Below are positions 4,201 to 4,277 of a stretch of 5,809 nucleotides of DNA, in pieces; the first letter of the stretch is position 1; the number at the start of each line of letters is the position of its first letter. This DNA comes from a virus (lineage: Duplodnaviria > Heunggongvirae > Uroviricota > Caudoviricetes). Location of the stretch: IMG/VR virus record IMGVR_UViG_2531839233_000007, one strand, 5' to 3'. The notes under the pieces were generated by a model. It was given only the letters and a program-made list of their open reading frames with translations, made no database searches and was not told where the DNA came from. The translations under genes were made by a program, and so were the position numbers.

Positions 4201-4212
4201 TTGTTTTCACCT

Positions 4213-4233
4213 TGTAACGCTCGCAGCGTTACA
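4213..4233. repeat. palindrome TGTAACGC-TCGCA-GCGTTACA, copy 3 of 3, just upstream of the initiator RBS
   Basis: Perfect inverted repeat (also readable as 9+3+9) between the YdaT-like stop and the AAGGTGA RBS of the initiator gene. Confidence 0.6.
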
Positions 4234-4242
4234 TTTAACTGA

Positions 4243-4264
4243 TACCGAACAAAACAGTTCGGTA
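4243..4264 (-). promoter_or_regulatory. perfect inverted repeat TACCGAAC-N6-GTTCGGTA (hairpin or protein-binding site) in the YdaT-like/initiator intergenic region
   Basis: 8-bp perfect arms with 6-bp spacer; contains GAAC/GTTC half-sites like the operators but with different spacing; no U-run follows on the transcript. Confidence 0.4.
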
Positions 4265-4277
4265 CGATTAATTTCAA

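Follow-up and report, generated by a model that had tools for sequence, protein, structure and literature searches.

A probable initiator iteron beside a lineage-specific stem-loop in the early region of a lambdoid prophage

The gap between the regulator gene ydaT and the replication initiator gene in viral record IMGVR_UViG_2531839233_000007 (IMG/VR; Caudoviricetes) holds two perfect palindromes, P1 and P2, which are probably unrelated elements. P2 would be an initiator iteron, the leader member (site C) of a triad whose other members lie inside the initiator gene, in the parts encoding its N-terminal domain (site A) and its linker (site B). P1 would be a lineage-specific stem-loop or scar. 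The stretch analyzed, 5,809 nucleotides long and called the window below, is a lambdoid early region identical to that of prophage Sp10 of Escherichia coli O157:H7 Sakai and of hundreds of other E. coli prophages. A preliminary description of the window had given the 77-bp gap and the positions and sequences of both palindromes correctly (Table 1) and had treated the two as a pair, whereas we found that they differ in origin and in conservation. It had passed over three points: P2 is one of three copies, P1 is perfect in the lineage of the window only, and a motif resembling the YdaT box fills the other end of the gap. The P2 motif is repeated and conserved, freezes codons, switches in concert between sites, and is linked to the initiator gene. 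We infer that the protein binding P2 is most likely the initiator, and the position of P2 against the ribosome-binding site suggests a role in autoregulation or in assembly of the origin complex.

The P2 motif inside the initiator gene

The window was scanned for inverted repeats with perfect arms of at least 8 bp and spacers of 0 to 8 bp. Only four perfect palindromic loci were found, P1 and three sites built on the heptamer GTAACGC; six perfect, overlapping inverted-repeat registers were seen in all, against a mean of 0.81 in 300 dinucleotide shuffles, three of which reached six or more. A repeat search returned the 21-bp palindrome TGTAACGC-N5-GCGTTACA in three copies, with a spacing of 207 bp from site B to site A and of 192 bp from site A to P2. 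GTAACGC itself occurs nine times in the window, while 0.59 occurrences are expected and none of 200 shuffles reached nine, and eight of these occurrences are found within 440 bp (3792-4232). The palindromes of sites A and B are read in one frame, giving C-N-A-R-G-V-T (residues 54-60) and G-N-A-A-S-V-T (residues 123-129). Since P2 carries the same motif as the two sites inside the initiator gene, the initiator, and not the repressor, the Cro-like protein or YdaT, is its obvious binding partner.

The conservation of these sites was followed among relatives. Initiator homologues were collected at E ≤ 1e-5 (1,201 homologues), and four sets of loci were compared: 80 close viral loci from viral contigs, 27 loci from contigs of species-representative genomes, four encoding contigs (Citrobacter, Salmonella, Klebsiella, and a metagenome), and 117 loci found by the exact P1 pattern. 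In nearly all members of the 27 loci and four contigs, GTAACG-N7-CGTTAC palindromes occur at +148/+160 and at +337 to +424 from the ATG, usually with lone half-sites 12 or 23 bp from them. The internal sites are kept at the same codons in Enterobacterales and in metagenome-assembled genomes of Planctomycetota, Saccharibacteria, and Ignavibacteria. The layout of the linker cluster is also fixed across phyla: the palindrome, 5 to 17 nucleotides (nt), CGTTAC, the polypurine run CAGAGGAAGAGG, and then an AT-rich stretch. This cluster encodes an invariant QKALPEEEE (window counterpart, 3757-3834), and the polypurine tract beside the last half-site is present in all relatives.

At site A, conservation extends to synonymous positions. 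A codon alignment of 23 diverse loci revealed that its codons are frozen (AAC in 23 of 23, GTT in 20 of 20, AGC in 17 of 18, GGT in 18 of 20), whereas third positions elsewhere in the gene are typically only 0.3 to 0.7 conserved. The first codon of the site varies in amino acid (Cys, Ser, or Gly) and retains xGT. The motif also switches as a set. Among three divergent relatives, loci L100 and L105 have CTAACG...CGTTAG at both sites A and B, L100 with an identical 21-mer at the two sites, and in L107 site A reads TGTCACA-N7-TGTGACA and site B contains half-sites to match. A concerted switch of this kind points to one protein reading the whole set, since independent RNA hairpins would have no reason to change together. 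Duplex DNA sites read by a protein are likewise favored by the frozen synonymous codons and by the lone half-sites, direct repeats that are unable to pair or to form hairpins. A DNA site can apparently freeze codons, and even a peptide motif (N-A-x-x-V-T), in the gene of its probable reader.

Two other codons stand out in the same alignment. K104 (window, approximately 3889-3891) is AAA in 23 of the 23 loci and N99 is AAC in 20 of 21, which may reflect a further nucleotide-level constraint in the run AAAAAACGGGC. Two chromosomal copies, from Shigella flexneri and E. coli (L082 and L083; initiator at 2501), keep all three palindromes although their initiator frame ends after 210 codons, and they are probably decayed prophages.

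The origin of phage lambda lies in the middle of gene O and is made of O-binding iterons and an AT-rich tract (PMC7466680). The window has a parallel layout. Dyad-symmetric sites are repeated inside the initiator coding sequence (two full palindromes and two lone half-sites), the site cluster in the linker-coding region is flanked by an AT-rich, strand-asymmetric tract, and the sites have been selected as DNA and covary with the initiator, as judged from the frozen synonymous positions and the concerted switches. The GC minimum of the initiator gene (0.35-0.45) and a strong AT skew extend across 3760-3900. Site B, together with the extra half-sites and the polypurine/AT-rich tract at 3757-3790, is therefore a likely origin of replication, as far as its sequence can tell.

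The resemblance to the lambda origin, and to those of the Stx phages P27 and 933W, covers the location of dyad-symmetric initiator sites in the interdomain-linker part of the initiator gene, the adjacent AT-rich, strand-asymmetric tract, and the helicase-loader gene downstream; as in lambda, the module is transcribed from an early rightward operon after a CII-type regulator (PMC7466680). The arrangement differs from that of lambda in that the sites are about 200 bp apart instead of forming one tandem array of four to six, and in that one of them lies in sequence coding for the DNA-binding domain and another, P2, lies outside the gene at the ribosome-binding site. Lambdoid O/ori specificities diverge quickly, whereas the motif of the window's family is almost unchanged across phyla.

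The initiator is composed of a winged-helix-like N-terminal domain, an acidic linker, and a DnaT-like C-terminal domain. The C-domain (residues 170-262; window, 3412-3690) is homologous to the C-domain of host DnaT (PDB 2ru8 and 9zbt; E = 2e-4 to 7e-4), which suggests that the phage protein mimics DnaT in recruiting the helicase and its loader. The model of the N-domain resembles winged-helix DNA binders, and the domain had no match in Pfam or NCBIfam, the Pfam family Phage_rep_O included. Homology to lambda O was not found: the sole signal in that direction was a PHROG "O-like" match spanning residues 76-236, no sequence relation of the N-domain to O could be detected, and the C-domain, unlike that of O, is DnaT-like. 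Many initiators of E. coli and Salmonella are longer (374 to 380 amino acids [aa]), with an insertion of some 115 aa that interrupts the acidic linker immediately next to the putative origin tract (columns ~170-305 of protein alignment A1, proteins P0011-P0058; insertion point near window 3750-3770). The 376-aa variant with this insertion matched nothing in Pfam or NCBIfam.

Literature searches on GTAACGC and iteron, on DnaT, prophage, and iterons, and on ydaU, ydaV, and origin returned nothing on this initiator family. P2 is very probably a binding site, and the whole design appears to be a new, uncharacterized member of the lambda type of origin, inside the initiator gene, and its leader site is reminiscent of the autoregulation of plasmid Rep proteins. 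A likely origin and a cognate motif, GTAACGC-N5-GCGTTAC, can accordingly be proposed for a family of about 1,200 homologues that databases label "hypothetical".

The leader copy and its possible roles

About 15 of 22 enterobacterial loci have a palindrome equivalent to P2, located 13 to 45 nt ahead of the ATG. The genes upstream of this palindrome are unrelated (ydaT, a gene for a 75- to 86-aa protein, a methylase-like gene, or an antisense insert), so that the leader copy accompanies the initiator behind at least five unrelated upstream contexts, and the upstream stop codon falls inside the site in several relatives. Homology between the window and the Salmonella module starts exactly at P2, and homology to the initiator modules of Citrobacter and Klebsiella starts there as well. 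Among the roughly 200 close copies in the 80-locus and 117-locus sets, the spacer of P2 varies, but its arms are constant save for a single base in three to six loci.

We propose that each GTAACG half-site takes one winged-helix N-domain and each full palindrome a dimer; the lone half-sites would sit 12 bp away (direct repeats) or 23 bp away (the outlying half-site of the linker cluster). P2 would then lie between the cistrons of a pR-type operon, where an occupied site, by itself or in a loop with sites A and B, would most plausibly hinder the passage of RNA polymerase into the initiator and loader genes and so provide negative feedback. Its occupancy could also help to build the origin complex. 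If so, initiator feedback in a phage early operon could be tested at the leader site by the ribosome-binding site.

Autoregulatory inverted repeats of iterons are present at the rep genes of pSC101 (RepA), F (RepE), and R6K (pi), where they overlap the rep promoter. As in these plasmids, an inverted repeat of the origin-iteron half-site, with the same 8-bp arms as in sites A and B, is placed immediately upstream of the initiator gene, a natural place to limit initiator synthesis. Unlike in the plasmids, the initiator gene is internal to an operon and no promoter-like site is present at P2, so that repression would need a roadblock or looping. A promoter and terminator scan returned nothing on the transcribed (minus) strand in the gap, no sigma-70-like site on that strand in or near it, and no promoter-like site overlapping P2. 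Because of this lack, a roadblock to RNA polymerase (by P2 alone or looped) or a part in the origin complex is the most plausible role that we can assign to P2.

Several observations weigh against this assignment. Without a promoter-like site over P2, autorepression of the classical operator type is not supported, and one bound dimer ordinarily makes a poor roadblock. P2-to-ATG distances form two classes, near -33 and near -43, and the leader copy is missing in about one-third of the enterobacterial relatives and in all the distant phyla. Since so many relatives lack it, the leader copy would be an accessory site, not one essential to the replicon nor part of the core origin. The structure model of the initiator is mediocre (pLDDT, 67) and had no significant match in Foldseek, and the initiator is put forward as the reader of P2 only on its co-location and covariation with the sites.

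A bolder extension, which we hold tentatively and judge rather unlikely, would join the three palindromes in one looped nucleoprotein complex, in which occupancy of the origin throttles transcription or translation of the initiator and loader genes. Under such a scheme, the near constancy of the motif from Enterobacterales to Planctomycetota would result from its being locked into the reading frame of the protein itself. If true, the complex would be a built-in governor of copy number or induction for a widespread family of initiators with a winged-helix N-domain and a DnaT-like C-domain.

The palindromes could also act on the mRNA. The preliminary description had noted that both would form stable hairpins lacking a U-run and therefore looked more like binding sites or translational modulators than terminators. 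The first part of this statement holds. Both stems fold on either strand (z = -2.8 and -3.5), with predicted sense-strand energies of -11 and -12.9 kcal/mol (z = -2.8). They are followed on the sense strand by UCAGUUAAAU (P1) and AAGGUGAAAA (P2), without a U-run, and no terminator-like site was found on the minus strand. The scan in Rfam, run over the whole window at a permissive threshold, returned only a spurious tmRNA fragment and nothing in the gap.

It is conceivable, then, that the two palindromes are hairpins of the sense mRNA, with P2 tuning or lowering translation of the initiator, possibly as a translational operator bound by the initiator, and P1 serving as an intercistronic stabilizer. 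Besides the stability of the stems, the retention of the sense stem by P1 variants (see below) fits this scheme, and so does the location of P2, which directly abuts the initiator Shine-Dalgarno sequence on its 5' side in the window, as had been described, and ends 1 to 2 nt from it throughout the E. coli/Salmonella/Citrobacter/Klebsiella subgroup. In Mixta, Erwinia, Serratia, and Yersinia, however, the leader copy lies about 10 nt further from the Shine-Dalgarno sequence. The sequence of P2, and not just its pairing, is conserved across phyla, lone half-sites that cannot pair accompany the palindromes, and the motif changed identically at separate sites in L100, L105, and L107. We thus consider the mRNA scheme improbable; translational modulation by P2 is a weaker reading than a DNA site, and of the two palindromes only P2 behaves as the binding site that had been suggested for both.

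Even less credence is due to the view that the stems of P1 and P2 act in single-stranded DNA as a signal for primosome assembly or priming, working with the DnaT-like C-domain and the DnaC-like loader. Two adjacent stable hairpins in a noncoding gap and the homology of the initiator C-domain to a primosomal protein would agree with it. Yet relatives with the same C-domain lack P1, the behavior of P2 is accounted for by duplex binding sites, and no similarity to known assembly sites was found, which leaves the idea with a very slim chance.

The lineage-specific palindrome P1

P1 has a different history from that of P2. The homology of the window with the ydaT of the Rac prophage of E. coli K-12 (about 90% DNA identity in the gene) ends at the ydaT stop codon; Rac has a 12-bp gap before ydaU (a DUF1376 initiator) and no P1. 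In another E. coli ydaT context, the shared sequence stops after TGATTGAA. Since the homologies of the modules end on either side, P1 lies in a junction segment of about 40 bp that belongs to neither. All of its occurrences were in E. coli and Shigella and had the order ydaT-P1-P2-initiator. P1 is missing in Klebsiella, Pantoea, and Erwinia, where P2 directly follows a ydaT-like gene, and in Citrobacter and Salmonella an insert of 580 to 690 bp occupies the same junction. A scan of viral contigs with the exact pattern and a sensitive BLAST against phages returned P1 in the same context only, and a short-word BLAST of the gap against the loci of Citrobacter, Salmonella, Klebsiella, and the Mixta type revealed no P1 homologue. 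A CGAACC...GGTTCGG hairpin at the Citrobacter/Salmonella junction was considered as the ancestor of which P1 would be a relic and was dropped, the alignment being unconvincing.

The junction between ydaT and the initiator gene appears as a hot spot for inserted genes. The inserts of Citrobacter and Salmonella (L109, 1314-2000; L111, 1425-2000) contain a small antisense open reading frame of 83 to 89 aa and a long hairpin pairing with its ribosome-binding site, and L111 has a strong terminator-like stem right after ydaT.

Five haplotypes of the 5' arm were counted in the pooled 80-locus and 117-locus sets, which overlap, so that contigs fetched in both are counted twice: the perfect arm TACCGAAC (63 loci), TGCCGGAT (105 loci), TGCCGGAC (25 loci), and TGCCGGAG and CGCCGGAC (2 loci each). 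The 3' arm GTTCGGTA, the loop, and the flanks are unchanged in all of them. P1 is thus perfect in about one-third of the copies, and the DNA symmetry, down to 5 or 6 matches of 8 in the imperfect haplotypes, is lost in about two-thirds. The sense RNA remains stable in all five haplotypes through G·U pairs (-9.1 to -12.9 kcal/mol), whereas the antisense RNA is stable in the perfect form only (-11.1 kcal/mol, otherwise -1.6 to -3.9 kcal/mol). Most copies have lost the symmetry of the DNA as well as the antisense stem, and this rules out, as general functions of P1, a symmetric protein site and an antisense terminator like that of lambda oop RNA.

Variants with G2/G6 are spread over several ydaT and immunity backgrounds, but the perfect copies belong largely to a single haplotype, which suggests that the perfect palindrome is probably derived. 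It may have arisen by two G-to-A changes, possibly in one templated quasipalindrome correction, a known mechanism for clustered changes. Annotators should be aware that perfect palindromes in one gap are not always a functional pair, P1 being perfect in one lineage only.

P1, whose importance is doubtful, is probably either a neutral scar or a minor stem-loop in the mRNA, and it would have at most a modest effect on mRNA 3'-end stability or on read-through from ydaT into the replication genes. Intercistronic stem-loops such as the malE-malF REP hairpins shield the upstream message from 3' exonucleases. P1 resembles them as a stable stem-loop without a U-tract, located 13 nt after a stop codon in a polycistronic message and with a stem that G·U pairs preserve in the sense strand only. 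It differs from them in that it is a single short stem of no repeat family and is absent from relatives with the same gene order. The changes that preserve the stem through G·U pairs are few (A2G, A6G, and C8U), and by our own estimate a fraction of about 0.1 to 0.4 of random substitution sets would be equally compatible, so that selection for the RNA stem is not demonstrated.

The alternative that P1 has no selected function, and is simply a module-joining scar at a recombination-prone junction whose symmetry arose by chance or by a single quasipalindrome correction, seems to us possible although somewhat unlikely. The junction segment has no match in either flanking module or elsewhere, the junction is empty in Klebsiella, Pantoea, and Rac but filled by long inserts in Citrobacter and Salmonella, the differences among gap haplotypes are all in one arm, and the distribution of the G2/G6 and perfect forms over backgrounds agrees with such an origin. 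On the other hand, about 200 copies share one and the same 3' arm, loop, and flanks despite a difference of 4 to 12% in ydaT and the initiator gene, and all five haplotypes hold a sense stem of at least 7 bp.

The preliminary description had also pointed to the GAAC/GTTC half-sites that P1 shares with the immunity operators. We considered, accordingly, that P1 might be a DNA operator for the repressor, the Cro-like protein, or YdaT, coupling immunity or the lysis-lysogeny decision to expression of the replication genes. The core is indeed common to P1 and to the five operators TG(A/T)AC-N5-GT(A/T)CA, and the perfect P1 is mostly linked to the immunity region of the window. But the spacer of P1 is 6 bp instead of 5, its arms read CGAAC, and its haplotypes do not follow the immunity type: imperfect forms are accompanied by at least three other repressor/Cro pairs, one such haplotype alone by three or more, and exceptions run both ways (a foreign immunity region goes with four perfect copies, and that of the window with two imperfect ones). 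This pattern is the one expected from linkage to the neighboring ydaT allele. The suggested tie to the immunity operators is not supported.

YdaT has been footprinted on ATGATT-N6-AATCAA over the ydaT start codon in Rac and on TTGATT-N6-AATCAA in CP-933P (PMC11879457; PMC9986795). P1 too is an inverted repeat whose spacer measures 6 bp, it lies in the same regulatory neighborhood, and a motif resembling the YdaT box abuts it. Its half-sites (TACCGAAC), however, are unrelated to TTGATT and are asymmetric in most copies, and P1 as a YdaT site is not supported, the site being TTGATT-N6-AATCAA, with its perfect copy over the ydaT start codon (PMC11879457). With symmetry reduced to 5 or 6 of 8 positions in most copies, an operator of either kind is highly improbable. 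In a check by eye against the consensus sequences, P1 fitted no LexA, IHF, or DnaA site.

The least probable of the functions weighed for P1 is that of terminator of an antisense transcript like lambda oop RNA, aimed at the CII-like gene. P1 is placed between ydaT, the CII analogue, and the analogue of O, which would suit this function, and on the plus strand the stem is followed by CGATTAATTT and was flagged as terminator-like by the scan. However, no promoter-like site was found upstream on that strand, Rfam gave no match, the stem lies beyond the ydaT stop codon and does not overlap the gene, and in the majority haplotypes the plus-strand stem collapses to -1.6 to -3.9 kcal/mol. On the transcribed strand, neither palindrome has the features of an intrinsic terminator; on the plus strand, P1 is a borderline case, with a stem lost in most haplotypes.

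Neighboring genes, YdaT boxes, and immunity operators

The positions of the elements discussed here and of the neighboring genes are given in Table 1.

Table 1. Features of the window (positions in the 5,809-nt stretch)
Feature	Position	Strand	Description
P2 (site C)	4213-4233		Leader iteron palindrome; TGTAACGC (4213-4220)-tcgca-GCGTTACA (4226-4233)
Site A	4021-4052		Full palindrome 4021-4041 and lone half-site GTAACGC 4046-4052; encodes in frame G-N-A-E-C-N-A-R-G-V-T
Site B cluster	3792-3834		Linker-coding region; palindrome 3814-3834 and lone half-site 3792-3798; encodes GNAASVT and, further on, KALP
AT-rich stretch and 20-nt tract	3757-3770; 3771-3790		Tract pyrimidine on plus strand, purine on sense strand; adjoins site B; candidate DNA-unwinding element
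P1	4243-4264	-	TACCGAAC (4243-4250)-aaaaca-GTTCGGTA (4257-4264); 8-bp stem (9 with closing G·U), 6-nt loop
Junction segment with P1	4234-4272		About 40 bp; belongs to neither neighboring module
Gap	4201-4277		77 bp between ydaT stop codon (TCA on plus strand, 4278-4280) and initiator ATG (CAT, 4198-4200)
Initiator Shine-Dalgarno sequence	4207-4212	-	AGGTGA, 6 nt before ATG 4200-4198; read from sequence
Replication initiator gene	3412-4200	-	262 aa; PHROG "replication initiation protein", no Pfam family
DnaC/IstB-like helicase-loader gene	2659-3405	-	Pfam PF01695, E = 2e-20; immediately downstream of initiator gene
DUF1627 and DUF977 genes		-	After the DnaC/IstB-like loader in gene order
ydaT	4278-4700	-	CII-like regulator, 140 aa; Pfam PF06254, E = 6e-11
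Cro-like helix-turn-helix gene	~4697-4951	-	
DicA/cI-like repressor gene	5031-5450	+	
Perfect YdaT box	4690-4707		TTGATT-ttcatg-AATCAA; over ydaT start codon, same position as Rac footprint (PMC11879457)
YdaT-box-like motif	4264-4281		ACGATT-aatttc-AATCAA; 10/12 consensus match; overlaps ydaT stop codon, touches P1
Immunity operators (five)	4967-4981; 4991-5005; 5024-5038; 5527-5541; 5551-5565		TG(A/T)AC-N5-GT(A/T)CA

The YdaT of the window keeps the H-R-W recognition residues. Besides the perfect box, the only match to the YdaT box in the window is the motif that touches P1; since 0.54 matches per window are expected by chance, it is not significant on its own. It lies 426 bp from the perfect box, and looping between the two is conceivable, the YdaT tetramer having two DNA-binding faces. 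The right half of the motif lies in the lineage-specific junction, and we do not claim it as a functional YdaT site because the other ydaT context shares only the TTGATTGAA part, at the ydaT end. Of the five immunity operators, three are located between the cro-like and cI-like genes, one of them covering the cI-like ATG, and the other two are downstream of the cI-like gene and next to a pL-like promoter (TTTACA-17-CATTAT).

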